From positions 399,383-463,382 of the forward strand of contig CAZVVT010000001.1 of the NCBI GenBank assembly GCA_964630595.1: a stretch of DNA of 64,000 nt, read 5' to 3'. Shown here piece by piece: positions 10,152-53,363 of this stretch. Both the position numbers and the translations under genes were made by a program. The notes beneath the pieces were generated by a model. It did no database searches. It saw only the letters and a program-made list of their open reading frames with translations, and was not told the origin of the DNA. This DNA comes from an uncultured bacterium. GTDB lineage: Bacteria > Chlamydiota > Chlamydiia > Chlamydiales > VFKH01. Positions within the stretch are counted from its first letter, which is position 1. The number at the start of each line of letters is the position of its first letter.

Positions 10152-10181
10152 ACTCCTTTGGATGTACCAAATGAGTGGAAT

Positions 10182-11060
10182 TTAGGCGACGAGCACTTCA
10201 GGGCTGCGTTTGCAGAACATCTCCAAATAACGGAGGGCCAGACGGGAAATTTCGCACTCAAATGCTTGAACAAGAGCATGATCCACCACGGGCCTTTCTG
10301 CAATGATATGATCCATGTTGAGCAATTCCACTTGCTCGCTTAATCGAGGATCGACATTGCGCGGCACACTCAAGTCGATGATACGCTTGGTCCCAAGCGC
10401 TTCAAACTCCTCAATATTAAGCAGATAAGAATTACAGCGGGTAGCAAACACCAGCGTCTCATAGCGCAGCCAGGAGCGCTTGTCATCCCAAGGCACATCG
10501 CACAGGCCGCTACGGTTGGTGAACGCCCCCGGCCTTTTCGCAGCGATAGCACAGTTGATCTCTGAGTGGCCCACATAGAGCACGCAGCCGCGGATGTGAC
10601 GGCAGACGATCTCTTCAACAGAGAGATTCTGCTGCGGCCACTGACTTCTCACCCATTTGCCGACCTTGAGAGCCTTCTGGAAGAGAAAGTGGAGGTCGGA
10701 GTTTGCATTGCACCGCCCCTCATCGTAGGCCTGGCGCACCTGGCCCTGCACCTGCGTCTCTCCCACCACTGCGCTGTCCAGCCCTGCCGTCACTCGGCAG
10801 AGGTGGGCAAAACAGTCGGCGCCAAAAAAAGTATAGAGTTTTTGCTCGAAATCCCCCGTAACCTCCGCTTTCAAGCGTTGGATAATGGCACTATGCAGGT
10901 TATCGGGTTCTGGATGGCTAAAGTAAATTTCAGTTCTATTACAAGTAGAAAGAAGAATATAGAAACCATCAAATCCACCGCGACCGAGGCTTTTTGCAAC
11001 CTGCTCGCGCAGCGCCAACTCGGCACATTTGTGGTTGATGCCCAAAATTCCTATTTGCAT
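10182..11060 (-). CDS. hemA: Glutamyl-tRNA reductase (short, divergent HemA)
   Basis: 292-aa ORF with the catalytic STCNRTEIY motif, GLDSAVVGETQVQGQVRQAY and IDLSVPRNVDP. The NADPH-loop position reads VLYVGHSEIN rather than the GxGxxG form. Confidence 0.75.
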   Translation of the reverse strand: MQIGILGINHKCAELALREQVAKSLGRGGFDGFYILLSTCNRTEIYFSHPEPDNLHSAIIQRLKAEVTGDFEQKLYTFFGADCFAHLCRVTAGLDSAVVGETQVQGQVRQAYDEGRCNANSDLHFLFQKALKVGKWVRSQWPQQNLSVEEIVCRHIRGCVLYVGHSEINCAIAAKRPGAFTNRSGLCDVPWDDKRSWLRYETLVFATRCNSYLLNIEEFEALGTKRIIDLSVPRNVDPRLSEQVELLNMDHIIAERPVVDHALVQAFECEISRLALRYLEMFCKRSPEVLVA

Positions 11061-11139
11061 GAAACATTAGGTATAATGAGGTGTAGGAATTTTTGGACAC
11101 TGGGAAAAAATCCTCTCCGGTAGATAATCTCCCGCCATC

Positions 11140-12933: not shown

Positions 12934-12936
12934 AGT

Positions 12937-14853: not shown

Positions 14854-14976
14854 AAGAACCTGTGCAACAAACTCCCGCCACTGCCGTCCAAGAGCCTATG
14901 GAGGCCTTTCGCGAGGCGCTGCTCAAAAAAGTCATCCTCGATATCCAAAGCTTTGAACAGGCAATGAAGAGAGCGC

Positions 14977-16247: not shown

Positions 16248-16395
16248 CCCCTCTTAAAACCTGAATTTCTGATTCAAACTTAAAATTTTTCCTCTAGACC
16301 TTTTTCAAACGCATCCGCTATAGAGTGAGGGTAGAACGCAAGGGGCTACCAATGGCTCCGTGCCCAAATCTATTAATCTTGCAAGGAGTCTCCTC

Positions 16396-38765: not shown

Positions 38766-39836
38766 ATGTCCGCCAAGAAACAGGAGCGAGAAGAGAAAGT
38801 CCTTCTCGGGCTCATTGACCTCTACATTAAGACTGCCCGCCCGGTGGGCTCCCAAACGCTGCAAGAATGCGGCTTTAGCGACCTCTCTTCGGCCACCATC
38901 CGTAACTACTTTGCACGGCTCGAAAAAGAGGGGTTTTTGACCCAGGCGCACGCTTCTGGCGGACGGATGCCGACCGATAAAGCTTTCCATTTTTTTGCCG
39001 CAAAGTGCCTCCAAGAGCCAGTCGTTGCAGCAAGCGCTACGCAGCCTGTGCGCGAAGTGGCGGCGCTGCTCGACCGAGAGGCTGAACGGTTGTCGAGAGA
39101 GACAAGAACGGCTGTTGTCATCACCAGTCCCCGCTTTGATCACGACTTCATCCGCGACATCCGCATTGTGGTCATCGACGATTTTCGCATCTTGGCTGTC
39201 TTGATCACCGATTTTGGGCTGGTGAAGTCCGAAGTCATCGCTACGGCTCAAGCCATTGATGCCAAAATTGCCGCGCGCTTGGAGGCCAACTTTCTCTGGC
39301 ATATTCGTGGACGCGAGGGCAGCCCTGCCGAACTGGATGGTGCGTGGCAGCAAAGCGCGCAAGAGCTCTACCAAGAGATCATGGTCCGTTTTCTTGTCGG
39401 CTATTCCCACTTCCCACGACCTGATCTGCATAAAAAGGGCTTTTCCACTCTTCTCTCCTATCCCGAATGTGGCGACCCCGTGCCGCTGGCGGAAATTCTC
39501 GGTCTCTTCGAGCAAGAAGAGGCGCTCTTTGCACTGGCACAGGAAGCAGTCTCCGGCATTAAGTTGTGGATTGGTTCTGATTTGTCCTCGTTTGGTTGCA
39601 ATGCGGCCACGCTCATCGCAATGCCCTACCACCTGCACCAAAAATCGGTGGGCATGATTTTGATGCTGGCGCCGACGCGCATGGACTACAAAAAAGCGCT
39701 CGAGAAGATTCAAACGCTCTCTCAAGGTCTCTCTGAGCACCTCACGGCCAGCTTATACACCTTCAAACTCTCTTATCGAGAACCCAACATCAAAACCCCT
39801 TACGTTACGGAAAGTGAACGACGCCTACTGACATGA
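38766..39836 (+). CDS. hrcA: Heat-inducible transcription repressor HrcA
   Basis: 356-aa ORF whose N-terminal winged-helix segment REEKVLLGLIDLYIKTARPVGSQTL is the HrcA signature. It is first in the hrcA-grpE-dnaK order. Confidence 0.92.
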   Translation: MSAKKQEREEKVLLGLIDLYIKTARPVGSQTLQECGFSDLSSATIRNYFARLEKEGFLTQAHASGGRMPTDKAFHFFAAKCLQEPVVAASATQPVREVAALLDREAERLSRETRTAVVITSPRFDHDFIRDIRIVVIDDFRILAVLITDFGLVKSEVIATAQAIDAKIAARLEANFLWHIRGREGSPAELDGAWQQSAQELYQEIMVRFLVGYSHFPRPDLHKKGFSTLLSYPECGDPVPLAEILGLFEQEEALFALAQEAVSGIKLWIGSDLSSFGCNAATLIAMPYHLHQKSVGMILMLAPTRMDYKKALEKIQTLSQGLSEHLTASLYTFKLSYREPNIKTPYVTESERRLLT

Positions 39837-40312
39837 GTGAAGAACCGAACAACCCGCCTCCTGAAGAGGATTTCAAAGACAAGTACTTTCGCGCCATTGC
39901 TGAGCTGGAAAATGCTCGCAAACGGCTCTTAAAAGAGAAATTGGAAGCCATTGGAGCTGCGCAAGAGGATGTCATTACCGATTTCCTGCAGCCCATCGAC
40001 AACTTTGAAAATGCACTTCGCTTTGCCAAAGGTGGCAGCGATGAACTAAAAAATTGGGCCATCGGCTTTGAGATGATTCTAGGACAGTTGAAATCGGTGC
40101 TCACACAGCACCAAGTCACCTCTTACGAATCGCTGCACAAAACGTTTGACCCCGCCCTCCACGATGCTGTGGAGAGTGTAGAAACTGAAGAACATCCCGC
40201 CGGCACTATTCTGCAAGAATTCTGCCCCGGATACCGCATGAACGGGCACACCATTCGCCCGGCGCGTGTAAAAGTAGCTAAAAAAAAGGAAGATCATGAC
40301 GAAAAAAAGTAA
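39833..40312 (+). CDS. grpE: Nucleotide exchange factor GrpE
   Basis: 159-aa ORF with [18 protein letters not shown] and the C-terminal beta domain FDPALHDAV. It overlaps the hrcA stop with ATGA. Confidence 0.9.
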
Positions 40313-42188
40313 AATCATCGGAATCGACCTAGGAACCACCAACTCCTGCGTCGCAGTGATGGAAGGAGGCGTTGCAAAGGTCATCGCCTCAGCAGAAGGA
40401 ACACGTACAACTCCCTCTGTCGTTGGTTTCAAAGGCGCTGAAAAAATTGTCGGCGTTTCTGCGAAACGGCAAGCCGTCACCAACCCCACCAACACCTTCT
40501 CCTCCACAAAGCGCTTCATCGGCCGCAAAGCCTCGGAAGTGCAAGCGGAGATCAAAAACGTGCCCTACAAGGTAGTTTCAGGCCCAGGTGGCAACGCTGT
40601 CTTCGAATGCGAAGGCAAAACCATGACGCCGGAAGAAATCGCTGCCTACATCCTCATCAAGATGAAGGAGACGGCAGAAGCCTACTTGGGCGAAAAAGTA
40701 ACGGAAGCGGTGATCACCGTTCCTGCCTACTTCAACGATGCACAGCGTCAGTCAACCAAAGACGCAGGCCGCATTGCAGGGTTGGATGTCAAGCGCATCA
40801 TCCCTGAGCCCACAGCGGCTGCTTTGGCCTACGGTCTCGACAAAGTCGGCGAGAAAAAAATTGCTGTCTTTGACCTCGGCGGCGGTACCTTTGATATCTC
40901 CGTGCTCGAACTGGGCGACGGCGTATTTGAAGTACTGGCGACCAACGGCGACACCCACTTGGGTGGTGACGACTTTGACAATGCCATCCTCAACTGGCTC
41001 TTAGAGGAGTTCAAGAAGGAGCACGGCATTGATCTGAGAAATGATCGTATGGCGCTCCAGCGTCTACGCGATGCAGCAGAAAAGGCGAAAATTGAACTCT
41101 CCGGCACGCAGTCGACAGAGATCAACCAACCCTTCATCACGATGGACCAGTCTGGCCCCAAACACTTGTCGACGACGTTGACGCGTGCCAAATTGGAGAG
41201 TCTGACACACAGCTTGATCGAGCGTACGCGCGAGCCTTGCCTGAAGGCACTGAAAGATGCCGGCTTGTCTCCTGCGCAAATCGACGAAGTGGTTCTCGTG
41301 GGCGGCATGACGCGTATGCCCGCCGTTCAGGATATGGTGAAGGCCATTTTCCAAGGCAAAGAACCGCATAAAGGGGTGAACCCCGACGAAGTCGTTGCCA
41401 TCGGTGCAGCGATTCAAGGCGGCGTACTTACAGGAGACGTGAAAGACGTTCTTCTGCTCGACGTCATTCCTTTGACGCTCGGGATCGAAACTCTCGGCGG
41501 CGTGCTCACTCCCCTCGTGGAGCGCAATACCACCATCCCCACACAGAAGAAACAGGTCTTCTCTACAGCGAGCGACAACCAGCCCGCTGTGACGATCGTT
41601 GTTCTGCAAGGGGAGCGCAAGATGGCCAAAGACAACAAGGAAATTGGCCGCTTTGATCTGACAGATATCCCTCCCGCACCACGTGGTGTGCCGCAAATCG
41701 AAGTCGCCTTCGACATCGATGCGGACGGGATTCTGCACGTATCCGCACGCGATGTCCAATCCGGCAAGCAACAGAAAATCCGCATCGAAGCGACCTCCGG
41801 CCTCAGTGAGGCAGAGATCCAGAAAGCGATTAAGGATGCTGAAGCTCATGCTGAAGAGGACAAGCGCCTCAAAGAAGAGATCGATGTCAAAAACGAAGCC
41901 GATGCTCTCGTCTTCCGCGCAGAAAAGTCCATCAAGGAATTCAAGGACAAACTGCCCGCTGAGATCGTCTCCGATATCGAATCGAAGATCCATGCTGTCA
42001 AGAAGGCTCTTGAAAGCAAGGAAATCTCGGCGATTAAGGCAGCCGCTGAAGAGCTCTCCTCGCACATGCAAAAAATTGGCGAAGAGCTGCAAAAGGCTTC
42101 TGCTGCGCAAGGCAGTGCTCAACCCGCTCCTGGCAACGAGAAAGTGGAAGAAGCTGACGTCGAAATTGTAGACGAAGAAAAGAAGTAA
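40296..42188 (+). CDS. dnaK: Chaperone DnaK (Hsp70)
   Basis: 630-aa ORF with [38 protein letters not shown] and an acidic C-terminus. Confidence 0.97.
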
Positions 42189-42199
42189 TTGTTTCTTTT

Positions 42200-42232
42200 G
42201 GGTCTCTGGAGAAATCCAGAGACCCTTTTTTT
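42200..42232. terminator. Hairpin terminator after dnaK (also faces the convergent gene)
   Basis: Stem gggtctctgga (42200-42210) / tccagagaccc (42215-42225), loop gaaa, then ttttttt. A T-rich run precedes it, so it can function on the opposite strand. Confidence 0.85.
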
Positions 42233-43103
42233 ATTTCTCGATCACAGCAATCGAGATCACTCCATCATCAAAGGATTGCTCCGGAACAAAGGCCTTTGCC
42301 ACGAAACCTGCTTCACGATAGGTCTCAGATATTTGCTTTGCAATGCCTTGCAGCGCTTCCAAGCTCCACCTTTTCCCCGCATAAGTATTTGCTAAACACT
42401 CTAGCTGTTTGGTGGGAAGAATGGTGGCCCCTACTACTTTAAACCGACGCACATTCACCGACGCGGTCATGTCGCGATCATCTATGTCCATGGTAGCAAC
42501 CGTGCGCAGAGGGCGCTTTCCACGTACAGGCACCGTCGCTGGAACCACAGGAGAGGAGGGTGTTGCGGGGATAATGGCTTGATGAGATGCAACGTGTATC
42601 ATTTTGCCGGGTTCAGGCAAGCGCTCTTCTGTGCGCAAATCGAAAACAACGGTTTGTTGCTGGGGCAAGCTGCTTTCTTGACATGCCAAAAGAAAGCTTC
42701 GGCTCTTTTCTTCCGCAAAGACCAACTCCAGCGCATCGGGGGCGACGCAATCCTCGCCATTGTTGCAGCCCGCCAGCGTCAAGGCAATCGGGTCCGCATA
42801 GGAGGTGTCTTGAGCCAAAGCGATTTCCTCATCTGCAGGATCATTGAAAAAAGCTGCGTGAGAAAGCGGCGTCTGCACCTTTTCAGCGACCTGCGCAAAA
42901 AGAGATGTCGACTCCTCGTTTTGAGGCAGCAAGGCTTCTGTATGTTCCTCTAGAGCAAGAGCGATGACATCGGGAGTTGTTTGCTCAACTGCGGAAACTA
43001 GACCAGAGTGCGGTGCTGCATGATCATCGAGCACCGACAACAGTTTATCTTCCAGATCGGCAGCGCACAGTACACAGGGAAGCGCCCATAAAATCCATTT
43101 CAT
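42231..43103 (-). CDS. Secreted hypothetical protein ending in an orphan ShlB/TpsB-type POTRA domain
   Basis: 290-aa ORF with a signal peptide (MKWILWALPCVLCAADL) and an acidic middle. The last ~75 aa are VNVRRFKVVGATILPTKQLECLANTYAGKRWSLEALQGIAKQISETYREAGFVAKAFVPEQSFDDGVISIAVIEK, which match the POTRA_2 pattern. The ORF then stops. Confidence 0.65.
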   Translation of the reverse strand: MKWILWALPCVLCAADLEDKLLSVLDDHAAPHSGLVSAVEQTTPDVIALALEEHTEALLPQNEESTSLFAQVAEKVQTPLSHAAFFNDPADEEIALAQDTSYADPIALTLAGCNNGEDCVAPDALELVFAEEKSRSFLLACQESSLPQQQTVVFDLRTEERLPEPGKMIHVASHQAIIPATPSSPVVPATVPVRGKRPLRTVATMDIDDRDMTASVNVRRFKVVGATILPTKQLECLANTYAGKRWSLEALQGIAKQISETYREAGFVAKAFVPEQSFDDGVISIAVIEK

Positions 43104-44227
43104 ACTGACTCCACAACAACAATAACGACAATGCCATATTGCAGTGACTGTGTGGGCACATACACCTTAACGGCAGGCAAACTAGCCTTCACATAAGCAA
43201 GTTTGATTTGGTAGGCAATATCTTCTAGTTCATCAATCGTGAGCTTTTGTTTTGCATAGCGATTCGCGATTCTGTTCAGTTGCTCGGTTGAAAGAAGAGA
43301 GGCTCCTACAACGGTGACGCAGTTTACCTGCACACATGCTCCTGGACCCCTTTCGTCTACCAAACGAGGCATAGAGCGAATCGGCGGCGCGTACACTTTC
43401 GCAGCGGGCGAGCAAGAGCCTTGCGGCTGCTTCTCGCAACAAGGTGATGGACACTGGCAAGGCTGCGGGCAACGGCACGGCTGTGGGCAGCAGGGTTGTG
43501 GTTGCACGTCGCAGCAGGGCGATGGACACTGGCAAGGTGGCGGACAGCGGCAGGGCTGCGGGCAACAAACGGAGGGCTGCACAACAGGTATGACAGGACA
43601 ACAGGGCTCTGTGGGCTGCGGCGCGGGCTGCGTAGAGGGACACCACTGCACATTGCAGAAGGGTTCAGGAAGTGGGTAATCAGGCTCTGGGTAGGGACCG
43701 GTGTCCTCACAGCATTGGTCCTGCCAGGTATTGATGGTCTCCGGAGTAATCACCAGGCCAGGCTCAGGTTCTTGAGGGGGAAAAACTGTCTCAGTAGGAG
43801 CCGGTGCTGGTGCTGGCGTAGGCGCAACAACTGCTGGAGGAGTCGGTGTTGGGGTAGGCGCAACAACTGCTGGAGGAGCCGGTGCTGGAACAACTGGCTG
43901 CGGGGCGGGAAGCGGCAGGAGAGTAGAGGGAGTGGGGTTGAGTGGAATGGGATCTTCGAAGGTGCTTTCTACCACCGGAGTGATCCAAAAACCTCCTCCA
44001 AGAGAGGTCGAAGTAGGCTCCGCCTGGCCCGGCTCATCCTGGCTAATGTCGATCCCGTAGCCCTCTTCTTCATCCGAAGTATCGGGCGTTACAGGCAGAT
44101 CATAGCCCTCTTCATCGTCGTCCAGCTCAACAGATTCGCTTTCGTCCGGAGGCGAAGAGTTCTCCGCCCGCAAGGGAGCAGAGGCAAAAAGGGTAAGCAA
44201 ACCTAAAGCCAACAGCACTTGGATCAT
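43100..44227 (-). CDS. Secreted Cys/Pro-rich repeat protein ending in an orphan ShlB/TpsB-type POTRA domain
   Basis: 375-aa ORF with a signal peptide (MIQVLLALGLLTLFASAPLRAEN), an acidic region and PPAVVAPTP repeats. Two 25-aa CCPQPCRCPxPCQCPSPCC repeats follow. The C-terminal segment VQVNCVTVVGASLLSTEQLNRIANRYAKQKLTIDELEDIAYQIKLAYVKASLPAVKVYVPTQSLQYGIVVIVVVESV is paralogous to the end of ORF 42231..43103. The stop overlaps the next start (ATGA). Confidence 0.65.
   Translation of the reverse strand: MIQVLLALGLLTLFASAPLRAENSSPPDESESVELDDDEEGYDLPVTPDTSDEEEGYGIDISQDEPGQAEPTSTSLGGGFWITPVVESTFEDPIPLNPTPSTLLPLPAPQPVVPAPAPPAVVAPTPTPTPPAVVAPTPAPAPAPTETVFPPQEPEPGLVITPETINTWQDQCCEDTGPYPEPDYPLPEPFCNVQWCPSTQPAPQPTEPCCPVIPVVQPSVCCPQPCRCPPPCQCPSPCCDVQPQPCCPQPCRCPQPCQCPSPCCEKQPQGSCSPAAKVYAPPIRSMPRLVDERGPGACVQVNCVTVVGASLLSTEQLNRIANRYAKQKLTIDELEDIAYQIKLAYVKASLPAVKVYVPTQSLQYGIVVIVVVESV
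43418..43567 (-). repeat. Tandem 2 x 75-nt coding repeat (25-aa CCPQPCRCP(P/Q)PCQCPSPCC module)
   Basis: Hand alignment of 43418-43492 against 43493-43567 gives 58/75 identical nt. The peptides are CCPQPCRCPPPCQCPSPCCDVQPQP and CCPQPCRCPQPCQCPSPCCEKQPQG. Confidence 0.85.
43818..43878 (-). repeat. 36-nt-period coding repeat (PPAVVAPTP x2)
   Basis: The 25-mer gtaggcgcaacaactgctggaggag occurs at 43818-43842 and again at 43854-43878. Confidence 0.8.
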
Positions 44228-44274
44228 CTTACCCTCAGTTATCTGGCACTCTTCATTTTCCTGTCAAAGAACCT

Positions 44275-45465
44275 TCAAAGTTCCTCTGATTCGCTGTAGT
44301 ACTTGCTTCTCCAATCTACGGCAGAGGGAGGATTAACAGCTGGCGGAGGTCCTTCGGGCGGTAAGGCCGGGCCTTTTGCCTCACCTGTCGGTGCCACAAC
44401 GGATACTCCAGCGCTTGCAGCGGCTTCCACACCTGGTTTTCTCTCAGGCACACCTCCTCCAGAAGGAGCAAGCTCGGCAGGACGAGGATCCTCTCCTCCT
44501 GCACGAACAACCGGTGGAGGCGGCGCTGCTGGTTCTGCCGGTCGCTCCGGCGGTGTTGTTGACGCAGCACCGTCTGCAGCCGCTCCGCCACGAAGCGCTA
44601 CGTCCAACTCGGACTCTTCGCTTGATTTCCCTTCCGGCGCAGTAAATCTGATCGGAGCGGAGAAAGGAGGTGCTATGCCTACTGCCCTTTCTGCTGGAAT
44701 AGCTCCCCCCATCAAAATTGTCGCATAATCTCGAGCGGAGAGCTCTCCTTCCATAATTTGTGAGAGGTTGAGTTGACCTCGAATCGCAGAAAGACCCTCG
44801 GGCTCCACCGCTGTTAACCCACGTCTTGCAATCTCTTGCGCGATCAGACGGCGTAAATAGCTGTCTTTTATGTCGCCCATCTTCGCACCAAATAACAATG
44901 TGCGCACTTGATCCAAAACCTGTTTTACCTGACTTCTATCGAGTGGAGTTGCCTCTGCACTTTTACATAAGTTAATATCTGCGTACGAACGCAGTGCCTC
45001 ATCAAACCGACCCAGAGTCACGCTTACCGCCCCGTGAGCGGCCAGTCTCGCTACTCCCGGCGGACTGTCAGCTGGTCTCTCTGCAGCACCACCAGTATTC
45101 AGCACCCTGGCTTCTTCGTAGATACGCATCTGCGTTAGCCATTTTTCCACCGCAAGCCGCCCTCCAAACATGAGATCAACGACTCTGGAAGCCGTTTCTT
45201 GTTGCTTTAGAGTCAGAGCTTCCTCCTTTTGCCAAAGATGCTTAAAAATCTCTCTTTGGTAGGGTGTTAACGCTTTCGCAGTAATAAAATCGGCAAGCGG
45301 AATGCGTCTTTCTGAACAGCAGCTGAACAGCCGTCCCAAAAAAGAGCCGGTATCAGCCTCTGCCTTTGGCGATATCCCTGTAGTAATATTTACCGTACCA
45401 GTATTGCACAACGTTGCAAAGCACCCAGCACACCCACCCACATCTACTCTCGTACCAGACGCCAT
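44275..45465 (-). CDS. Hypothetical protein with an N-terminal Cys cluster and a Pro/Ala/Gly-rich C-terminal third
   Basis: 396-aa ORF with no signal peptide. The N-terminus reads GGCAGCFATLCNTG..FSCCSERR. The C-terminal ~110 aa are low-complexity (PPERPAEPAAPPPPVVRAGGEDPRPAELAPSGGG...). It lies 47 bp upstream of the POTRA-protein genes on the same strand. Confidence 0.55.
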   Translation of the reverse strand: MASGTRVDVGGCAGCFATLCNTGTVNITTGISPKAEADTGSFLGRLFSCCSERRIPLADFITAKALTPYQREIFKHLWQKEEALTLKQQETASRVVDLMFGGRLAVEKWLTQMRIYEEARVLNTGGAAERPADSPPGVARLAAHGAVSVTLGRFDEALRSYADINLCKSAEATPLDRSQVKQVLDQVRTLLFGAKMGDIKDSYLRRLIAQEIARRGLTAVEPEGLSAIRGQLNLSQIMEGELSARDYATILMGGAIPAERAVGIAPPFSAPIRFTAPEGKSSEESELDVALRGGAAADGAASTTPPERPAEPAAPPPPVVRAGGEDPRPAELAPSGGGVPERKPGVEAAASAGVSVVAPTGEAKGPALPPEGPPPAVNPPSAVDWRSKYYSESEEL

Positions 45466-45540
45466 ACACCTACTCCTCCAAAAAAATTTTTGTGATACCG
45501 AAGGTGTATGCTACTTCCGTAAAGATTTGATGAAAAGAGT

Positions 45541-47364
45541 TTAGAAAATTCTGCGCAGATCCCAGTAAGTGACGAAGAGGAAGAAGCCGATGAGCAAAAT
45601 CACGAAGGGAAAGACGATGCGCTCAAAGAGTTTGGGGCTCACTTTTTGGCCGCTGATCATCTCGTACAGAGAGAGCAAAATATAGCCCCCATCAAGAACA
45701 GGAAGAGGGAGAAGATTCAGCAAGCCTAAGTTGATGGAGATGAAAGCAACCCAATAAACAGCCTCGAGAATGCCTCTAGAGGAGTTGTTTTGAATAACGT
45801 TGACGATGCCGATGGGACCACTGAGAGCTTTGGGACTGATAGTGCCCGTAGCGAGCGAGCGCAGCGTTTGCCCTACCTCTGTGAAAGCGCCCACAAAGAG
45901 CTGCTGAGGTGTGGGATTGTAGCGCACAGGAAGGTCTGTGAGGGGGATGCCCAACTTTAAGCGCGCCACCTCTTCATCGAAGAGCGGCAGAAGTTGTGCC
46001 CGTTTTTCACTGTCGCTTTCCGCTTCCAAGCGTCGGCGCATCTCAGCCACACTGCGCTGAAACTCCGCTCTCCACTCCGGGCTAACGGCGAATTCCGCTT
46101 GCGGTTTGGCCTCTACAGGTGTCAGGAGAACCAGATTGCCCACTGGAGTGCTATGACCCCCTACTTGAGCCACCATTTTTTCTATATCACTGCGATCCAG
46201 AAGAGAGTCAAAGTAGCTGTTCGCCTCCGCTGCAGAGAGGTCTTCTCGATACTGCACACCGCGCTGGACAATGATTGCCACGCGATGCACCTGCAAGGCA
46301 CGCAAAATATCGGCGCTCGTAGCCACAGCAACTCCATCGACAGCAATAATGCGATCGCCGCGCTGCAGATCCATCCCAATCGCTCTGTCGACAACACCCG
46401 TGTCGGTCAATTCGTACGGGATCGTCATCAGCGAGGTCCAGCGGCCGCGCAAACCAGAGGTGTACTGCTGGTCCATCAAGTCATCCACCGCACTCGGCGA
46501 AAAGCCCATTTGTCCGGCAGTCACACGCGGCACACGCACGACCATCCTTTGACCACCACGCAGAATGGTCAGGAGCGCCTTTTGCTCATTGATCAGGAAA
46601 GAGAGCTGCTCTTGTGAATAGATGGTCTCTCCATCGGCCCACACCAATCGATCCCCTTCTTGAATGCCGCTGCCTTCCATGGGCACGCCGGGAAGCATGC
46701 CGCCTCGATAGATCAAGAAACTCGCGGGAGCCAAAATGCCCGTCGTCTTCAGCTGGCTGCCCTTCATTTCATAAGGAACGGCGCAGAAAGAAAAAGGAGC
46801 TAACCTTCCATTTTCTTGTATGTGTTGACCCGTCAATTGCACACAATCGCTGCTCGTCAGCGTCGCTTTCATCAAATTGATGAAAGTGTCGTAGGGTTGT
46901 CCATTGACCGTCTCAATGATATCACCGGGTGCGACAGCTAGATGCGACTTGGCGTCAACAAAACCAACGCGGTTGGAAACCTCGTCATAATCCTTGATTC
47001 GGCCGCCACACGCCCAGATCAGCCCGAAAAGAACAAAGCCGACGAGCAGATTGACCAAAGGTCCGGCAATGGCCACCTTCAAGCGATCGATGGGTTTTTT
47101 TCCAAAGAAGCCGTCGGCGGGGATTTTGCCCCCCTCTACCTGCATGCCGGCGATCTTGACATACCCGCCAAAGGGCATCCAACCTATCTGCCAGCGCACA
47201 CCTTTGCGATCCCAGGCCAAAATAGGTTTGCCAAAGCCGATACTGAAGCACTCCACCCGCATTTTACAGCGGCGCGCCACCCAATAGTGGCCCCACTCGT
47301 GGACGAAAACAAGAATGCCGAGGGCAAAGACGGCTAAGATAACGGGAAGAAACTGGATCAACAT
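45541..47364 (-). CDS. rseP: RIP site-2 metalloprotease RseP (YaeL)
   Basis: 607-aa ORF with the HExxH motif in LVFVHEWGHYWVARR, PDZ-containing periplasmic region and the C-terminal LNLLPLPVLDGG motif. Confidence 0.9.
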   Translation of the reverse strand: MLIQFLPVILAVFALGILVFVHEWGHYWVARRCKMRVECFSIGFGKPILAWDRKGVRWQIGWMPFGGYVKIAGMQVEGGKIPADGFFGKKPIDRLKVAIAGPLVNLLVGFVLFGLIWACGGRIKDYDEVSNRVGFVDAKSHLAVAPGDIIETVNGQPYDTFINLMKATLTSSDCVQLTGQHIQENGRLAPFSFCAVPYEMKGSQLKTTGILAPASFLIYRGGMLPGVPMEGSGIQEGDRLVWADGETIYSQEQLSFLINEQKALLTILRGGQRMVVRVPRVTAGQMGFSPSAVDDLMDQQYTSGLRGRWTSLMTIPYELTDTGVVDRAIGMDLQRGDRIIAVDGVAVATSADILRALQVHRVAIIVQRGVQYREDLSAAEANSYFDSLLDRSDIEKMVAQVGGHSTPVGNLVLLTPVEAKPQAEFAVSPEWRAEFQRSVAEMRRRLEAESDSEKRAQLLPLFDEEVARLKLGIPLTDLPVRYNPTPQQLFVGAFTEVGQTLRSLATGTISPKALSGPIGIVNVIQNNSSRGILEAVYWVAFISINLGLLNLLPLPVLDGGYILLSLYEMISGQKVSPKLFERIVFPFVILLIGFFLFVTYWDLRRIF

Positions 47365-48257
47365 CGCCGAAATGATACGACGAGTGTAGCGATTGCAGCA
47401 ACGCTAAGAAGCGTGGCATAGAGTGCCCCGGTGGACAAAGCGGTGCCAAACTCGCTCAAAATATGCCTACTGAGGGCCACGGCAACAAAGGCCGCCGCTG
47501 CTGCCACCGTAAAGGCCAGCAGATGCATAGTGCCAAAGCGGCGCGCGAGACGGTGCCCAATGAGCCCCGGAGCAATCAGGCAAGCTAAAACAGCGACCAC
47601 TCCAAAGGTGTGGATGCCGATGACCATGGCCGCGGCGCTTTCAACCATCAAAAGCCAAAAAAGGGAGCGCACGGGCAGCCCAACACTCTGCCCAAAGCGG
47701 GGATCAAAGCAGGCCATCTTCCACTCTTTGTAAAAAAGAATCTGCAACCCCAAAACAAGCCCCGCGATGACCCACAAGGGCCCAAGCTCGTCGCTCGTCA
47801 ATGTGTCGGAGGAGCCCATGATCACCGACGTCCCCAAATGGATATTCTTCGCATAAGAGGTAACGAGAAGCAGCGCGAGGGCAAAAAGAGCGGTAAAGAC
47901 CAATCCAATCGCCGCATCTTCCTGCAGCCGCACATAGGTGCGAAAAAAACCCACCAGCGCACAGGTGAGCACCGCCGCAAGAATGCCGCCGATGAAAAAG
48001 GAATCGGCGGCGAAAAGATCGCCCATGATCAACCACACCACGACCACTCCTAAAAGGGTGGTATGCGAGAGCGCGTTGGCCAACATGGTCAACCGCTTGT
48101 AGATCAACATGGGGCCAATGATCGCGGCCGTGACGCTAAAGGCTAAAAGCGCCATGAGCTGCACTTCGTCGGGCGCTAGCGATTCTGCCCCCTGCACAAG
48201 CCGCTGCCCTAACGTAGCAAAAAACGAAAAGAAATCGGCGCCGCGGTAGGGATTCAC
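47358..48257 (-). CDS. ytgD: Metal ABC transporter permease (ABC-3 family), YtgD-like
   Basis: 299-aa polytopic ORF of the ZnuB/MntB/TroD type. It is last in the ytgA-B-C-D order. Confidence 0.8.
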   Translation of the reverse strand: MNPYRGADFFSFFATLGQRLVQGAESLAPDEVQLMALLAFSVTAAIIGPMLIYKRLTMLANALSHTTLLGVVVVWLIMGDLFAADSFFIGGILAAVLTCALVGFFRTYVRLQEDAAIGLVFTALFALALLLVTSYAKNIHLGTSVIMGSSDTLTSDELGPLWVIAGLVLGLQILFYKEWKMACFDPRFGQSVGLPVRSLFWLLMVESAAAMVIGIHTFGVVAVLACLIAPGLIGHRLARRFGTMHLLAFTVAAAAAFVAVALSRHILSEFGTALSTGALYATLLSVAAIATLVVSFRRC

Positions 48258-49429
48258 TTCTTCCTCGGGATGGGTTGACGATGCGGATCCAAGTGAGGAA
48301 AGCCGAGGAGCTGCTCGATTTCCTGCTCCATCTCAGCAGTGATCTTGTGCTCCGCCTCTTCCGCAATGGCATGCACAGCCTCTTTATCCAAGCCCACCTC
48401 TTCGGTGAGGTAGAGTTCAAAAAGGCGGTGGAGGCGAATGACATGCATCGCTCTTTCTCGCCCCTTTTCTGTCAGACTGTGGTCCGAGTATAAATATCCT
48501 TTACACACCAAAAGAAAGAGCAACCACGCCGATTCCTCTATCTTGCGTTCTTTGACAAGCGCTTTGAGAACGTTTTCTGCGCGAATCTTGAAGCGACTGC
48601 GAAGGCTACGCACAAGAGTGGCTACAAAGCCGCGACCAGGAGCAAAGAGAAGGCTCAGTAGAGCTATGGCGGAGGCAATCAGGCTCACGATAGGTCCTGT
48701 GGGGATGTTGTAGCTCCAACTTAAAGCAACCCCTAGCAAAGCACTGGCGGCCGCAACGAGTGCGGAAACCATGAGCATGCAGCTCAAGCTTTTCACCCAA
48801 GCGCGCGCTGCAATGGCCGGAGCAATGAGCATCGCGGAGAGAAGCACAACACCGAGAGTGCGAATTCCGAGAACAACCACCGCTAACGTCAGTGCTGCAA
48901 TCCCGATACGAGAAAAGCGCAAGCCCTGGGTCTGCGCAAAACTCTCATCAAAAAGGGTGGCCAGAATCTGTTTGTAGAGCAGCACCAAAACGGTAATGAC
49001 AACGGCCGCCAAAATTGCAAAGAGCAGCGCGTCATTTTCCGACAAGGTGGCTGCCTGGCCGAAGAGGTAGTGGTTGGCCGAGCGCCAGCTTTGCGGGAAA
49101 GCGCGTTGCACACCACTGGCAAGAAGGGTCCCGACGGCGAAAAAAGCCGAAAGGGTGAAGCTTAAAGAAAGATCTTGGCTCATGCCTTTTTTGCGCAACA
49201 AACTCGCCAGCAACCAACCCGCACAAGCCATTACTGCAGCACATACAACTGTGATTACCCCCAAGCTACTTACAAACAACGCAGCGATGACAATCCCGGG
49301 AAAGGTGGCGTGACTTAAACATTCCGCAATCAACAGCTGCTTGCGCGCAAAAAGCAAAACACCCACCAACCCCAGCGCAATCGCCATGAAGAGAGAAGCA
49401 ATCATGGGAGTGAGTAAGAGTTGATCCAT
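48254..49429 (-). CDS. ytgC: Metal ABC permease fused to a C-terminal DtxR/MntR-like repressor domain (YtgC-YtgR fusion)
   Basis: Within ORF 48254..49549 I prefer the ATG at 49429 (MDQLLLTPMIASL), a TAATG junction with the ytgB stop. The N-terminal ~290 aa are an ABC-3 permease. The C-terminal ~100 aa (LTEKGRERAMHVIRLHRLFELYLTEEVGLDKEAVHAIAEEAEHKITAEMEQEIEQLLGFPHLDPHRQPIP) match the DtxR-family metal-binding/dimerisation region. Confidence 0.85.
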   Translation of the reverse strand: MDQLLLTPMIASLFMAIALGLVGVLLFARKQLLIAECLSHATFPGIVIAALFVSSLGVITVVCAAVMACAGWLLASLLRKKGMSQDLSLSFTLSAFFAVGTLLASGVQRAFPQSWRSANHYLFGQAATLSENDALLFAILAAVVITVLVLLYKQILATLFDESFAQTQGLRFSRIGIAALTLAVVVLGIRTLGVVLLSAMLIAPAIAARAWVKSLSCMLMVSALVAAASALLGVALSWSYNIPTGPIVSLIASAIALLSLLFAPGRGFVATLVRSLRSRFKIRAENVLKALVKERKIEESAWLLFLLVCKGYLYSDHSLTEKGRERAMHVIRLHRLFELYLTEEVGLDKEAVHAIAEEAEHKITAEMEQEIEQLLGFPHLDPHRQPIPRKK

Positions 49430-50157
49430 TATTGTGTCACAGCGTCGAAAATTTTGGGTTGAGCACCAAAGGTTTTCTGGATGTTTTCTTCGGTGCACAC
49501 CTGCGCCGTTATACCGGAGGCAATCAGGCGACGGTTGAGCAAAATACACGAGTCAAAATAGCGTTTCAGCGTGGCCAAATCGTGGTGTACAATCAATATG
49601 GTTTTGCCCTCATCGCGCAGGGCACTGAGCTGCTCAATCAGCAGCTCTTCGGTCACCTTGTCAACGCCGGCAAAGGGCTCATCCATGAGAAGAATTTCCG
49701 CGCCCTGCATCAGAGCGCGAGCAATGAAGAGTCGCTGTTTTTGTCCGCCAGATAAGGAGCTAATTGGTTGATCGGCAAAGGACTGCATGTTGAGCTGAGA
49801 CAGCAGCTGATCGGCCTGGGCGTGTTCTTTTTGAGATGGGCGGCGGAAAATTCCCAAACGACCATAGCAGCCCATCAAAACAACGCCTCGTCCCGTGATG
49901 GGAAAATCCCAATCCACACTGTCGCGCTGAGGCACATAGGCCACCTTAGTGCGCACCGCTTTCAAAGGTTGGCCCAAAAAACGCACCGACCCACAGCTGG
50001 TGCGCACAAGCCCCAGCATCGCTTTCAGCAGCGTGCTCTTGCCGGCACCGTTGGGTCCTGCAATTGCCACCAACGTGCCTGCAGGAATACGAAAGGTGAG
50101 ATCCCACAACACAGGCTTTTCATTGAAATGAACGGAAAGACCTTCTACCTCGATCAT
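49429..50157 (-). CDS. ytgB: Metal ABC transporter ATP-binding protein, YtgB-like
   Basis: 242-aa ORF with Walker A GPNGAGKST, the signature LSGGQKQR and Walker B ILLMDEPFAGVD. Confidence 0.9.
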   Translation of the reverse strand: MIEVEGLSVHFNEKPVLWDLTFRIPAGTLVAIAGPNGAGKSTLLKAMLGLVRTSCGSVRFLGQPLKAVRTKVAYVPQRDSVDWDFPITGRGVVLMGCYGRLGIFRRPSQKEHAQADQLLSQLNMQSFADQPISSLSGGQKQRLFIARALMQGAEILLMDEPFAGVDKVTEELLIEQLSALRDEGKTILIVHHDLATLKRYFDSCILLNRRLIASGITAQVCTEENIQKTFGAQPKIFDAVTQ

Positions 50158-51077
50158 TGCAGTCCCTCACGAATCACTTGAGCATTGTAGAGAACCATGC
50201 CCTCCCACAAAGCCGCCTGACTCTCTTTGGGTCCCAGAGTGTCGCTGTAGAGGGGCTTTTCTGCGATGGAGACAGTAACCCCCTCCCCTTTTGCTACTGT
50301 GACAATGCGCTCAATGGCATCTCGGTTCACCGCCTCTTCCACAAAAACAACGGGGATGGCGTGACGCTTGATCTGCGAAATAATGGTACGCAGGTCGGAC
50401 AAACTAATCTGGCCGTCAGGAGCCAGCCCCTCGGGGGCAAAACAGTGGTTCTGCCAGTCGGTCACGTTGAAATAGGCGCGCACAAAATAGTGAAAGGCGT
50501 CGTGGCAAGTAACAAGATAGCGACACTGCGGCGGAATATGCGCAATCTCCTCGCGAACTTGGCGGTCGAGCTGCTGAAGCCGCGCGCTGAGTTGTGCCGC
50601 ACGCTGCCGGTATTGGGCCGCATGTTCTGGATCTGCTTCACAAAGCGCCTGCTCAATGAAGGGCACGCTGCGCGCAAATAGCGCCACATCCATCCAGATG
50701 TGCGGATCGAGCTCGGAGGCGCTGTGAATAATAGCCGAAGGCTCCTGCTTCAGGATCAAATCGCCCAAACCCACCGCATGTGGGGAGTTTTTGAGCCATC
50801 GACAAAGGCTCGCTCCGTGCTCTAACCCTAAACCGTTGTAGAAAACCAGCCGCGCATCAAAAAGTTTTTCCTCATCCCCTTTGACGAATTCGTACGAATG
50901 AGGATCGAGCCCCTCCCCGATGAGAGTATCCACGAATACCTCCTCTCCGCCCACCGCCTGTACGATGTCGGCAATCATGGCTGTTGTGGCTACAACCCGT
51001 AACTGAGTGGAATCCGCAGGAGCTTTAGAGCCGCAGGAGGCCAACAAAATAAGGGCTATGAAGAGAATATTTTTCAT
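50154..51077 (-). CDS. ytgA: Periplasmic metal-binding protein (cluster A-I SBP: TroA/ZnuA/MntC type), YtgA-like
   Basis: 307-aa ORF with the lipoprotein-like signal LILLASCGS. Conserved segments are DPHSYE and DPHIWMD, with CHDAFHYF in the C-lobe. Confidence 0.85.
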   Translation of the reverse strand: MKNILFIALILLASCGSKAPADSTQLRVVATTAMIADIVQAVGGEEVFVDTLIGEGLDPHSYEFVKGDEEKLFDARLVFYNGLGLEHGASLCRWLKNSPHAVGLGDLILKQEPSAIIHSASELDPHIWMDVALFARSVPFIEQALCEADPEHAAQYRQRAAQLSARLQQLDRQVREEIAHIPPQCRYLVTCHDAFHYFVRAYFNVTDWQNHCFAPEGLAPDGQISLSDLRTIISQIKRHAIPVVFVEEAVNRDAIERIVTVAKGEGVTVSIAEKPLYSDTLGPKESQAALWEGMVLYNAQVIREGLQ

Positions 51078-51153
51078 CTGAAAGAGGCAAATTGTATCAA
51101 ATACTTGAAATTAATCGTTGAAGTTTTCAATAGTCTCCCCCGAGGTTGCTAAA

Positions 51154-51630
51154 ATGGCGCAAATGGATCTAGAGAATTTAATTGAAACAGCTCTGCAGAA
51201 GATTGGCGGAAATAACATTAACGCTCTGTGTCGGTTCATCCCGAACGAAGAGGGCTACTGTTTACATCACTTTACGTTGCACAAACTAAAGAGACGCAAT
51301 CCCCCTGCTTTGGTGGCAATGTTGGAAAAATACATCTTGCATGTGGAAAAACCCAGCAAGCTCCAGCCCCAAAGAAGAGCCCCCCGCGGTAGCGGTACGC
51401 AGAAACACACCATCTCTCTCACGAGAGGCGATGTCTCCCGCATTGCGGAAATCTGCCGCAAGGAAGCCCCTGATATCTACCAGAAGCTCTCCCCAAGCCG
51501 CTCTCTGCCGAGAATCAAAAAAGAATTAATACGCTCCATCCAAAATGATGAGCTCAAAAAAGAACTTTGGGATGCCTTCGCGGATGCGGTGATGGCCAGC
51601 AAGGCCGCCTTCGCTACGGCTCGCGTATAA
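51154..51630 (+). CDS. Hypothetical protein
   Basis: The track ORF 51118..51630 starts at a TTG. I prefer the ATG at 51154 (MAQMDLENL). The product is basic, has no known motif and is followed by a clear terminator. Confidence 0.5.
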   Translation: MAQMDLENLIETALQKIGGNNINALCRFIPNEEGYCLHHFTLHKLKRRNPPALVAMLEKYILHVEKPSKLQPQRRAPRGSGTQKHTISLTRGDVSRIAEICRKEAPDIYQKLSPSRSLPRIKKELIRSIQNDELKKELWDAFADAVMASKAAFATARV

Positions 51631-51687
51631 TTTGAGGGCCGAATTTGACCCAAATTCCCCTTCGGCTGTAATCTATTCTCTTTAAAT

Positions 51688-51722
51688 GTGTCCGACTCTT
51701 AAGGGTCGGACACTTCTTTTTT
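51688..51722 (+). terminator. Rho-independent terminator
   Basis: Stem gtgtccgac (51688-51696) / gtcggacac (51705-51713), followed by ttctttttt. Confidence 0.8.
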
Positions 51723-51742
51723 CACAAGGAACCAAAAACCCC

Positions 51743-53287
51743 ATGTCTAGCAAATCGCAAGAGTTTGGACGCTGGCGCTCTTTTTTCTGGCCGGTCCACG
51801 CTCATGAGCTGAAGAAAATTCTTCCGATGCTCCTTATGTTTTTTTGTATCTCGTTCAACTACACAATCCTGCGCGATACGAAAGATGCTCTCGTAGTAAC
51901 TGCCCCCGGTTCGGGTGCCGAAGCCATTCCCTTCATTAAGGTATGGTGTGTCGTGCCTGCGGCCGTGGTCTTTATGATCGTCTATGCCAAGTTGAGCAAC
52001 ATGCTCAGCAAGCAGGCGCTCTTCTACGCGACAACAATTCCCTTTCTCCTCTTTTTCGCTCTCTTTGCGTTGGTCTTTTATCCCGCAAAAGATGCCCTTC
52101 ATCCCACAGACTTAGCAGACCGTTTGCAAGCAGTCCTTCCTCAAGGTTTGGGCGGCTTAGTAGCGATTTTCCGTAACTGGATCTACGCCGTGTTCTACGT
52201 CTTGGCAGAACTCTGGGGTTCTGTGATGCTCTCTCTGCTCTTCTGGGGCTTTGCCAACGACATCACACGCGTTTCGGAAGCAAAGCGTTTCTACGCTCTC
52301 TTCGGTATCGGTGCGAACCTGGCCTTGATGGTCTCCGGACCTGCCATCGTCTACGTCTCCGATATTAAGCGTAAACTACCCGTCGGCATTGATGCTTGGG
52401 GCGTTTCGATTAACTATCTCATGACGATGGTCGTCGTTGCCGGATTAGTCATTATGGCCACCTACTGGTGGATCAACAAGAACGTCTTGACCGACCCACG
52501 TTTCTACAATCCTGGCGAAGTCAAGAAGGCGAAGAAAGAAAAGCCCAAGATGAGTGTCATGGAAAGCTTCAAGTACCTCGCTCGTTCGAAGTACATCGCT
52601 TGCCTGGCTATTCTCGTCATCGCCTACGGCGTATCCATCAACCTCGTCGAAGTGACTTGGAAGAGCCAACTCAAACTGCAATACCCCGACGCCAACGACT
52701 ACAGCACATTCATGGGTAAATTCTCGTTCACAACGGGAATTGTCACCGTCTTTATGATGCTCTTCGTCGGTGGTAACGTCATCCGCCGTTTCGGCTGGGG
52801 CGTGGGCGCCATGATTACTCCGGTTGTTTTGTTGATCACCGGGATCGCCTTCTTCGCCTTCGTTCTCTTTAGAGACAACTTGGCGGGCACCATTGCTGCT
52901 TTGGGCACCACTCCCCTCTTCTTAGCGGTGATTGTGGGTATGATCCAAAACATCATGAGTAAGTCGGCAAAGTACTCACTCTTTGATCCTACGAAGGAAA
53001 TGGCCTACATTCCCCTCGACCAGGAAGCGAAGGTAAAGGGTAAAGCGGCGATTGACGTAGTAGGTGCTCGTCTGGGTAAATCCGGCGGCTCGCTCGTTCA
53101 GCAAGGCCTGCTCCTCATGTTTGGTACCATTGCAGCGATTACCCCCTATGTGGCGGTCGTCCTCTTTGCCATCATCGGTGCTTGGCTCATCGCTGCTCGC
53201 TCTCTGAGTAAGCAGTTCCACACTGTTTCGGCAGGTCATGATGCCCCTATGGGTCATGCAGTACCTCCGGTAGCAGAAAAAGGCTAA
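51743..53287 (+). CDS. Nucleotide transporter, NTT/Tlc ATP:ADP antiporter family, copy 1
   Basis: The track ORF 51686..53287 begins inside the upstream terminator, so I prefer the ATG at 51743 (MSSKSQEF). The product is a 12-TM protein with FNYTILRDTKDALVVTAPGSGAEAIPFIKVW, LFWGFANDIT and KYSLFDPTKEMAYIPLDQE, hallmarks of chlamydial/rickettsial/plastid NTTs. Confidence 0.9.
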   Translation: MSSKSQEFGRWRSFFWPVHAHELKKILPMLLMFFCISFNYTILRDTKDALVVTAPGSGAEAIPFIKVWCVVPAAVVFMIVYAKLSNMLSKQALFYATTIPFLLFFALFALVFYPAKDALHPTDLADRLQAVLPQGLGGLVAIFRNWIYAVFYVLAELWGSVMLSLLFWGFANDITRVSEAKRFYALFGIGANLALMVSGPAIVYVSDIKRKLPVGIDAWGVSINYLMTMVVVAGLVIMATYWWINKNVLTDPRFYNPGEVKKAKKEKPKMSVMESFKYLARSKYIACLAILVIAYGVSINLVEVTWKSQLKLQYPDANDYSTFMGKFSFTTGIVTVFMMLFVGGNVIRRFGWGVGAMITPVVLLITGIAFFAFVLFRDNLAGTIAALGTTPLFLAVIVGMIQNIMSKSAKYSLFDPTKEMAYIPLDQEAKVKGKAAIDVVGARLGKSGGSLVQQGLLLMFGTIAAITPYVAVVLFAIIGAWLIAARSLSKQFHTVSAGHDAPMGHAVPPVAEKG

Positions 53288-53314
53288 CTAATAATTTAGT
53301 TTAATGTCTTGACA

Positions 53315-53351
53315 CCCCCATTCTTGGTAACGAGAATGGGGGTTTCTTTTT
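53315..53351 (+). terminator. Rho-independent terminator between the two NTT genes
   Basis: Stem cccccattct (53315-53324) / agaatggggg (53333-53342), followed by tttcttttt. Confidence 0.8.
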
Positions 53352-53363
53352 GGGAACAAAACG

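Follow-up and report, generated by a model that had tools for sequence, protein, structure and literature searches.

Two adjacent open reading frames (ORFs) on the minus strand of contig CAZVVT010000001.1, within the 64-kb stretch of DNA that was analysed as a whole and is called the window here, encode proteins that terminate directly behind a single POTRA domain. ORF2 (43100..44227, 375 aa) and ORF1 (42231..43103, 290 aa), both taken from the ORF list and characterised with Pfam, are located between two genes that served as synteny anchors, rseP (Peptidase_M50; 45541..47364, minus strand) on the upstream side and the convergent dnaK (40296..42188, plus strand; ORF list and Pfam) on the downstream side. 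The assignment of rseP is based on Pfam analysis of the genes of a second assembly (L001) and on an RseP alignment and locus scan. Judged from sequence comparison, ORF1 and ORF2 are best read as truncated descendants of a chlamydial two-partner secretion (TPS) transporter, not as a free-standing new architecture.

The original prediction, which was made from the letters of the window alone, had proposed two tandem ORFs, each with a signal peptide, an acidic or Pro-rich middle and a C-terminal segment. Both ORFs exist at the coordinates given above. ORF1 is composed of a predicted signal peptide (MKWILWALPCVLCAA, followed by D), a non-conserved acidic middle with 42 Asp and Glu and 6 Cys residues, and a C-terminal POTRA domain of the first, N-terminal type (POTRA1; aa 217-289 of 290; 42237..42455, minus strand; Pfam, AlphaFold2 and Foldseek), one residue after which the stop follows. 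ORF2 starts with a predicted Sec signal peptide (aa 1-21, MIQVLLALGLLTLFASAPLRA, followed by E; 44165..44227, minus strand), continues with acidic, Pro-rich and Cys-rich repeats and ends with POTRA1 (aa 301-373 of 375; 43109..43327, minus strand; Pfam PF08479), two residues before the stop. Both signal peptides were read from the sequence and carry no predictor score.

ORF2 contains 25 Cys and 72 Pro residues in total, and 23 of the cysteines are concentrated in the Cys-rich region (aa 172-272; 43412..43714, minus strand), which was delimited by the Cys positions. Three sets of in-frame tandem repeats, with units of 75 nt (43412-43561), 36 nt (43809-43880) and 45 nt (44058-44119), encode two 25-aa Cys-rich, two 12-aa Pro-rich and two 15-aa acidic units, respectively. 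The two Cys-rich units, with the pattern CCPQPCRCPxPCQCPSPCC, are derived from the 75-nt repeat D1, the copies of which share 76% nucleotide identity.

A Shine-Dalgarno-like GAGGG motif is present at about 44232-44236 in front of ORF2, and for ORF1 a GGAG motif is found 7 nt ahead of the ATG. The stop codon of ORF2 and the start codon of ORF1 overlap as ATGA (43100..43103, minus strand; the plus strand reads tcat), just as the original prediction had stated, and this arrangement is consistent with co-transcription and translational coupling. Its further statement, that the second gene of the pair runs into the dnaK terminator, also holds. The intrinsic terminator of dnaK (42200..42233, plus strand, with the hairpin at 42200-42225), recognised by a terminator scan and in the sequence itself, has the ORF1 stop codon TAA (42231-42233, minus strand) inside its T-tract, at a distance of 42 bp from the dnaK stop, so that the end of ORF1 marks the border to the convergent dnaK.

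Identity of the C-terminal domain and absence of a barrel

The C-terminal segments of the two proteins align to each other with 42% identity, and their assignment to POTRA_2, which the original prediction had based on a sequence pattern, was borne out by the Pfam search. Pfam POTRA_2 (PF08479; gathering cut-off 24 bits) matches ORF1 with 48.8 bits (E=6.3e-13, profile positions 2-75 of 76) and ORF2 with 39.2 bits (E=6.4e-10, profile positions 3-75 of 76). The fold was modelled for the ORF1 domain, and the domain of ORF2 was judged by its 42% identity to it. An AlphaFold2 (AF2) model of ORF1 aa 201-290, calculated from a 56-sequence alignment, reached a pLDDT of 91.3 and displays the order E-H-(E)-H-E-E, which is the beta-alpha-alpha-beta-beta arrangement of a POTRA fold, while single-sequence AF2 of full-length ORF1 (pLDDT 37) was uninformative. 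When this model was compared with the PDB by Foldseek, the best match was 2mhj, the N-terminal POTRA domain of TpsB4 (TMq 0.79, rmsd 2.4), followed by CdiB and FhaC (top matches 2mhj, 6wim and 4ql0). A profile search of the PDB with alignment A5, in which the ORF1 domain stands first, likewise led to 2mhj_A (E=4e-24). The C-terminal domain of ORF1 and ORF2 is a genuine POTRA1 of the ShlB/TpsB type. Since 2mhj is the nuclear magnetic resonance (NMR) structure of the isolated 95-aa POTRA1 of P. aeruginosa TpsB4, a TpsB POTRA1 has a stable fold on its own and folds autonomously.

Neither ShlB (PF03865) nor Omp85 (PF01103) nor FtsQ was matched by ORF1 or ORF2 in Pfam at E<=10, and the same search gave no match to Chlam_OMP3, Chlam_OMP6/DUF11 or another chlamydial Omc family. 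POTRA domains are usually seen as periplasmic arms of Omp85/TpsB barrels. To our knowledge FtsQ is the single exception, the only well-known POTRA protein without a barrel, and what ORF1 and ORF2 share with FtsQ/DivIB is exactly this, a POTRA domain that is not joined to a beta-barrel. The divergence of chlamydial FtsQ (CT764; PMC4643143) would also leave some room for an FtsQ/DivIB-like division protein. However, the domain is POTRA_2 and not the FtsQ-type POTRA_1 (PF08478), the FtsQ beta-domain is missing, the POTRA domain is C-terminal instead of membrane-proximal, and the N-terminus has the appearance of a signal peptide that is cleaved off instead of a cytoplasmic tail with an anchor. Moreover, the genes are found next to rseP and dnaK and not in a dcw context, and chlamydial FtsQ has been reported to be without an identifiable POTRA domain (PMC4643143), so that a division protein of this kind is hardly conceivable here.

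In agreement with the original prediction, no barrel is encoded in cis. A hidden Markov model (HMM) built from the approximately 420-aa tails (POTRA2 plus barrel) of 74 TpsB matches, as well as a query with a complete chlamydial TpsB (locus L046, described below), detected no barrel in any frame of the 64-kb window, and the TpsA of the same locus found no TPS-like sequence in any of these frames. A second, membrane-proximal POTRA domain was not found either, since ORF1 and ORF2 end 1 and 2 residues after POTRA1. Extensions of tblastn alignments that seemed to offer a hidden POTRA2 past both stops turned out to be gap-ridden noise running into antisense dnaK and were rejected. The proteins encoded by ORF1 and ORF2 cannot form a pore.

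A frameshift or a mis-join might hide a normal full-length TpsB at this position, and comparable cases do exist in the databases. One of them is P0004, a protein with Chlam_PMP-like repeats and three terminal POTRA domains, which we considered as a barrel-less architecture and rejected as an artefact, because it is encoded on a contig of 1.73x coverage full of fragmented genes, TPS and TpsB genes among them. For the window, an independent Logan assembly, made from SRR12822863 (L001), agrees with positions 39814-53103 at 100% identity, that is over 13.3 kb including both genes, which makes an assembler-specific frameshift unlikely. In addition, barrel-like sequence is missing from all frames downstream of either stop, and the 42 bp between ORF1 and the dnaK stop are all the space that is left. 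The artefact reading is thus effectively refuted. The original prediction had named a barrel region lost by frameshift or assembly error as a finding that would speak against it; the loss itself appears to have happened, but by evolutionary deletion and not as a sequencing error, so that it speaks in part against the original reading.

Relatives and probable origin of the two genes

Word-indexed homology searches with full-length ORF1 and ORF2 returned for each protein only itself, and a search with an alignment of three POTRA sequences gave no match. A HMMER scan of 1.84 billion representatives with a profile of the two domains (ORF1 plus ORF2) resulted in 2141 matches. Among the best 150 of these, 84 continue for about 380-500 residues after the POTRA domain and are ordinary TpsB proteins, and 14 end within 12 residues of it; most of the latter are unverified fragments, but their number is more than uniform truncation by contig ends predicts. 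The best single-domain matches (P0012, P0018 and P0027; 727-834 aa) are TpsBs of a chlamydial type, which consist of a signal peptide, an acidic/Pro-rich extension of 230-340 aa, POTRA_2 and the ShlB barrel. The POTRA1 domains of ORF1 and ORF2 share 35-43% identity with this long-extension group, the best pairwise matches being P0012 and P0018 with 41-43% (ORF2 and P0012: 41%).

The genomic position of the two genes was compared by an RseP alignment scan, for which one genome per species was taken and which yielded 42 chlamydial loci. The rseP loci closest to the window are all from metagenome-assembled genomes (MAGs) of Chlamydiota. In only one of the 42 loci, L046, a POTRA_2 gene follows rseP. 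The RseP of this Chlamydiota MAG is 49% identical to that of the window and 87% identical to that of locus L006, and the gene order is rseP, TpsB, TpsA and convergent dnaK, which amounts to a complete two-partner secretion operon (9942-14962). Its TpsB (9942-12326, identical to P0018) is a protein of 794 aa with a signal peptide, an acidic/Pro-rich extension of about 290 aa, POTRA_2 at residues 301-374 and ShlB at residues 442-753, and its TpsA comprises 887 aa with a TPS domain (PF05860) scoring 107 bits. The long and uncharacterised extension is common to the TpsBs of L046, P0012 and P0027, where it contains the conserved motifs SIQDYxxPYN and YMEPW. These two motifs were not detected in ORF1 or ORF2.

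A parallel case of truncation is provided by P0017, a protein of 340 aa with the POTRA domain at its very C-terminus, which was among the top matches of the HMMER scan. Its cluster includes MCX6994577.1 ('hypothetical protein') from a Chlamydiota MAG, and P0017/P0151 is assigned to the Chlamydiota MAGs GCA_009885615.1 and GCA_026398475.1. The corresponding gene (P0151/P0017, in loci L003 and L006) is situated between rseP and dnaK and downstream of a TLC-TLC-ytgABCD arrangement, as in the window. The alignment of the encoded protein with the L046 TpsB extends over residues 1-376, and the protein ends five residues behind POTRA1. The breakpoint follows ITVVEP, which is continued by SPGN and the stop codon in P0151/P0017 and by TFDRIFIERF in L046. 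Barrel and tpsA are replaced in L003 and L006 by a DUF818 gene on the other strand. On the basis of these alignments, P0151/P0017 is an unambiguous truncated TpsB, orthologous to that of L046. Since L046, a close relative of L003 and L006, is full length, the truncation in the latter two must be independent of the one in the window. The three truncated genes (ORF1, ORF2 and P0151/P0017) end 1, 2 and 5 residues, respectively, after the last strand of POTRA1.

ORF1 and ORF2 agree with the long-extension TpsB subfamily in their position between rseP and dnaK and in the way a signal peptide, an extension and POTRA1 succeed one another. From this shared slot, the shared layout and the POTRA identity we infer the same tpsB origin. 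It is highly probable, as judged from architecture, synteny and the parallel case, that ORF1 and ORF2 are remnants of a type Vb tpsB gene. In the ancestral protein, a signal peptide would have been followed by a long periplasmic extension of acidic/Pro-rich composition, two POTRA domains (POTRA1 and POTRA2) and a barrel of 16 strands, and the tpsA gene would have come next to that of the transporter. In the lineage of the window everything after POTRA1 would then have been deleted together with the tpsA gene, and the remaining module of signal peptide, extension and POTRA1 would now be present as two diverged tandem copies.

Possible retained function, possible decay and genomic setting

That ORF1 and ORF2 still encode functional proteins has, in our estimation from the sequence data, about even odds with a slight lean towards function. 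For the whole explanation, which combines the origin from tpsB with a retained function, we estimate a probability of roughly 55%. The ends at a domain boundary, the intact export signals and the conservation of the fold in spite of synonymous saturation favour retained function. Between the POTRA domains of ORF1 and ORF2, the rate of nonsynonymous substitution (dN) is 0.54 and that of synonymous substitution (dS) is 2.8, i.e. saturated, and the same codon is used at only 13 of the 32 identical residues. In the comparison of L006 with L046, dN amounts to 0.15 for POTRA1 and to 0.62 for the N-terminal extension, with a dS of about 1.07 for rseP.

Several observations weigh against this explanation. 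The pore and the substrate gene tpsA are gone from the locus, and a TpsB or Omp85 barrel as a partner is not encoded in the 64-kb window. Within the truncated clade of L003 and L006, dN/dS is 0.42 (compared to 0.11 for rseP), a value that is compatible with relaxed constraint but comes from only about 13 substitutions, too small a number for a firm conclusion. The GC content at third codon positions (GC3) is 0.50 in ORF1 and 0.51 in ORF2, as opposed to 0.62 in rseP and dnaK. An antisense ORF of 236 aa (43496-44206) lies within ORF2 and results from the same biased composition, which means that open frames arise easily in such sequence. Moreover, the lineage of the window has been sampled only once, and the gap between rseP and dnaK is a variable slot across Chlamydiota (loci L009-L048), which measures between 590 bp and 7.6 kb and has unrelated contents in different lineages. 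In these other chlamydial gaps unrelated genes but no POTRA signal were found. Finally, a neighbour-joining tree of the 75-aa POTRA1 domains places ORF1 and ORF2 with a bootstrap support below 35% and gives no order of their duplication relative to the truncation, and the descent from an L046-type TpsB rests on architecture and synteny.

It is also possible, although clearly less probable than retained function, that both ORFs are non-functional relics from an intracellular genome under reductive evolution, in which a two-partner secretion locus has decayed, and that they have stayed open by chance or because the decay is recent. This would fit genes which derive from a precursor that has lost pore and substrate gene, which are orphans without close homologs and whose GC3 is below that of the flanking housekeeping genes, and the relaxed dN/dS of the parallel clade points in the same direction. 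Truncated or frameshifted TpsB fragments are indeed common in metagenomes (L095, L097, L099, L101 and L119). However, these fragments retain pieces of POTRA2 or barrel, whereas the three genes discussed here have their stop codon 1-5 residues behind POTRA1. When metagenomes were scanned with the alignment of chlamydial POTRA1 domains, 49 POTRA_2 loci were obtained, all of which (49/49, broken ones included) have kept POTRA2 or barrel sequence, and further truncated members ending with POTRA1 were not found among them. Simple decay also fits less easily with a complete and high-scoring POTRA domain in both ORFs in the face of synonymous saturation, with the integrity of the export signals, the Shine-Dalgarno-like motifs and the coupled ATGA junction, and with a POTRA domain in L006 that is far better conserved than its N-terminal extension. 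The repeat blocks of ORF2 suggest elaboration of the gene rather than decay.

If function has been retained, ORF1 and ORF2 would be made from one transcript with coupled translation, and Sec export followed by cleavage of the signal peptides would release the proteins into the periplasm, where they might be soluble or envelope-bound. It has been described that POTRA domains bind their partners by beta-augmentation and that the POTRA domains of TpsBs bind extended TPS domains (PMC5422565). The autonomously folding POTRA1 might accordingly be a docking module which accommodates an extended strand of a partner by beta-augmentation; this partner might be a machine of the Omp85 family, a second TpsB or a substrate that is being transported. 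Given this mode of binding and the autonomous fold, POTRA1 would dock the variable N-terminal region onto the strand of the partner, and this fast-evolving region would be the payload. In the case of ORF2, the payload would consist of a Pro-rich spacer and the repeat block with 23 Cys residues, and one would expect it to become part of the disulfide cross-linked envelope network of chlamydiae. ORF2 is a reasonable candidate for a component of such an envelope, with the likeness being one of composition and not of homology. The roles as adaptor, decoy or anchor, which the original prediction had put forward, are putative.

The setting of the genes fits a chlamydial host. The window (GC content of approximately 52%) encodes two TLC ATP/ADP translocases, a ytgABCD-like operon and an OmcB-like DUF11/Chlam_OMP6 protein, and its host is a Chlamydia-like bacterium. 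The OmcB-like protein (16360-18135, plus strand) possesses four DUF11 repeats and a sub-threshold match to Chlam_OMP6, and the presence of its gene supports a disulfide cross-linked envelope of the chlamydial kind in this organism. The ytgABCD-like metal ABC operon (47358-51077, minus strand) includes an ABC-3/Fe_dep_repr_C fusion of the YtgCR type. It is adjoined by the two TLC nucleotide transporter genes in tandem (51686-54830, plus strand), and this order is kept in L003 and L006.

Between rseP and ORF2 lies ORF3 (44275..45465, minus strand; ORF list), a context gene for an orphan protein of 396 aa that is not demonstrably part of the tandem arrangement. It matches no Pfam or NCBIfam family and has no signal peptide. 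The C-terminal third of the protein is rich in Pro and Ala, and the GC3 of the gene is only 0.42. ORF3 could be a lineage-specific protein of the effector type. The proteobacterial loci of the RseP scan have, behind rseP, a BamA-like ORF with weak matches to POTRA and barrel HMMs.

Free POTRA proteins elsewhere and comparison with known systems

Proteins that consist of little more than a signal peptide and a POTRA_2 domain were also found outside the Chlamydiota. Locus L138 (and likewise L139 and L140) encodes two of them with 144 and 143 aa (5001-5435 and 7821-8252), each directly upstream of a gene for a complete TpsB of 594 aa, so that the pair occurs twice per locus. The cluster has 21 members of 143-145 aa, and free POTRA protein and TpsB may represent a conserved pairing. 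Type I secretion genes precede the pairs, and a giant ORF follows them. A POTRA_2-only ORF of 120 aa is present on nine Armatimonadota-like contigs (L142:5001-5363 and L143:5001-5363), with no barrel gene within 5 kb, and is followed by a gene for a secreted protein of 158 aa of unassigned family. In L141 (5001-6666), an ORF for a POTRA1 of 130 aa precedes an ORF for a ShlB protein of 401 aa and then a TPS-domain gene, which may be a real split tpsB or the consequence of a long-read frameshift.

These loci bear on a further explanation, namely that ORF1 and ORF2 are trans-acting helpers of a TPS system or of a POTRA-less Omp85 barrel encoded elsewhere in the genome, with the free POTRA1 capturing or holding a TPS domain or acting as a decoy. 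The signal-peptide-plus-POTRA1 proteins next to complete TpsB genes in L138-L140 and the split at the POTRA1/POTRA2 boundary in L141 provide models for such a division of labour, and the binding of TPS domains by TpsB POTRAs (PMC5422565) provides a mode of action. TPS operons have been noted in Chlamydiae (PMC6490308; L046 is another example), and 'noNterm' Omp85 barrels are a known class (PMC4104836). However, TpsB, TpsA or an Omp85 barrel were not detected in the 64-kb window, the local tpsA has been lost, and L141 might be explained by a frameshift. We therefore consider helpers in trans rather improbable, and an origin from tpsB with a function kept by the two proteins remains the preferred reading.

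The claim that the architecture is undescribed holds in part. We found no description of natural POTRA-only or barrel-less TpsB-type proteins in the literature, and likewise no study specific to a chlamydial TpsB. The 2014 survey of Omp85 and TpsB proteins is centred on the barrel and discusses 'noNterm' barrels, not the converse. However, the two proteins are no orphans with respect to their layout, which is shared by chlamydial TpsBs, and the barrel-less POTRA_2 ORFs in L138-L140 and L142/L143 demonstrate that the architecture is not unique. It is rare and undescribed. A tentative and, in our opinion, doubtful generalisation would be that free periplasmic TpsB-type POTRA1 proteins form a recurrent class which has escaped description. 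Its members would be soluble proteins that capture a strand and serve Omp85-family machines as adaptors or anchors. In Chlamydiota they would have come about on at least two occasions when a tpsB gene was cut off cleanly between POTRA1 and POTRA2, and in other phyla they would have been kept as small ORFs next to a complete TpsB gene. The chlamydial members would link cross-linkable segments rich in Cys and Pro to the outer-membrane complex.

If a barrel-free POTRA1 is kept by selection, the domain can bind strands in the periplasm without the rest of the transporter. This would bear on substrate recognition by the POTRA domains of TpsB and BamA, and nature would have provided a soluble probe of these machines, or a competitor for them. 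Environmental chlamydiae would also gain a candidate constituent of their disulfide cross-linked envelope, which is poorly defined. Should the two ORFs be relics, they still illustrate clearly the decay of a two-partner secretion operon in an intracellular lineage. In either case, annotations as 'POTRA domain-containing protein' need context before they are interpreted.

Among the known systems, the type Vd autotransporters (PlpD) also possess an N-terminal non-transporter region in front of a POTRA domain of the TpsB lineage (PMC5422565), but in PlpD this region is a patatin passenger and a barrel follows, whereas ORF1 and ORF2 have neither a barrel nor a recognisable passenger fold. In an organism with an OmcB-like protein of its own, ORF2 shares with OmcA and OmcB the density of cysteines (23 within 100 residues) and the predicted targeting to the periplasm. 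Their sequences are not homologous, so that the resemblance is compositional and a cross-linking of ORF2 would be deduced from it.

The closest likeness in terms of the domain is to the TpsB proteins FhaC, ShlB, CdiB and TpsB4/LepB, with which ORF1 and ORF2 share the TpsB POTRA1, according to HMM, PDB profile search and fold, as well as Sec export, which is predicted for both. The locus lacks POTRA2, the barrel of 16 strands and a neighbouring TpsA, and where those proteins have a short H1 helix and linker, ORF1 and ORF2 have an acidic, Pro- and Cys-rich extension of 200-300 aa. The chlamydial long-extension TpsBs (P0018, P0012 and P0027) have the same N-terminal layout, and the L046 copy occupies the same rseP-dnaK slot. 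In contrast to ORF1 and ORF2, they continue into POTRA2 and the ShlB barrel, in L046 with a TpsA.

The small POTRA_2-only proteins of L138-L140 and L142/L143 differ from ORF1 and ORF2 in their size (120-144 aa), their short linker and their non-chlamydial origin, and in the L138 type a gene for a full TpsB comes directly after them; like ORF1 and ORF2, they are secreted and end a few residues after a single POTRA domain of the TpsB type. The P0017/P0151 proteins exist as a single copy, their extension is clearly homologous to that of the L046 TpsB and lacks a Cys/Pro repeat block, and their POTRA domain is only 38-41% identical to those of the window ORFs. Nevertheless, they display the same succession of signal peptide, acidic extension, POTRA1 and stop, and they are likewise encoded between rseP and dnaK.

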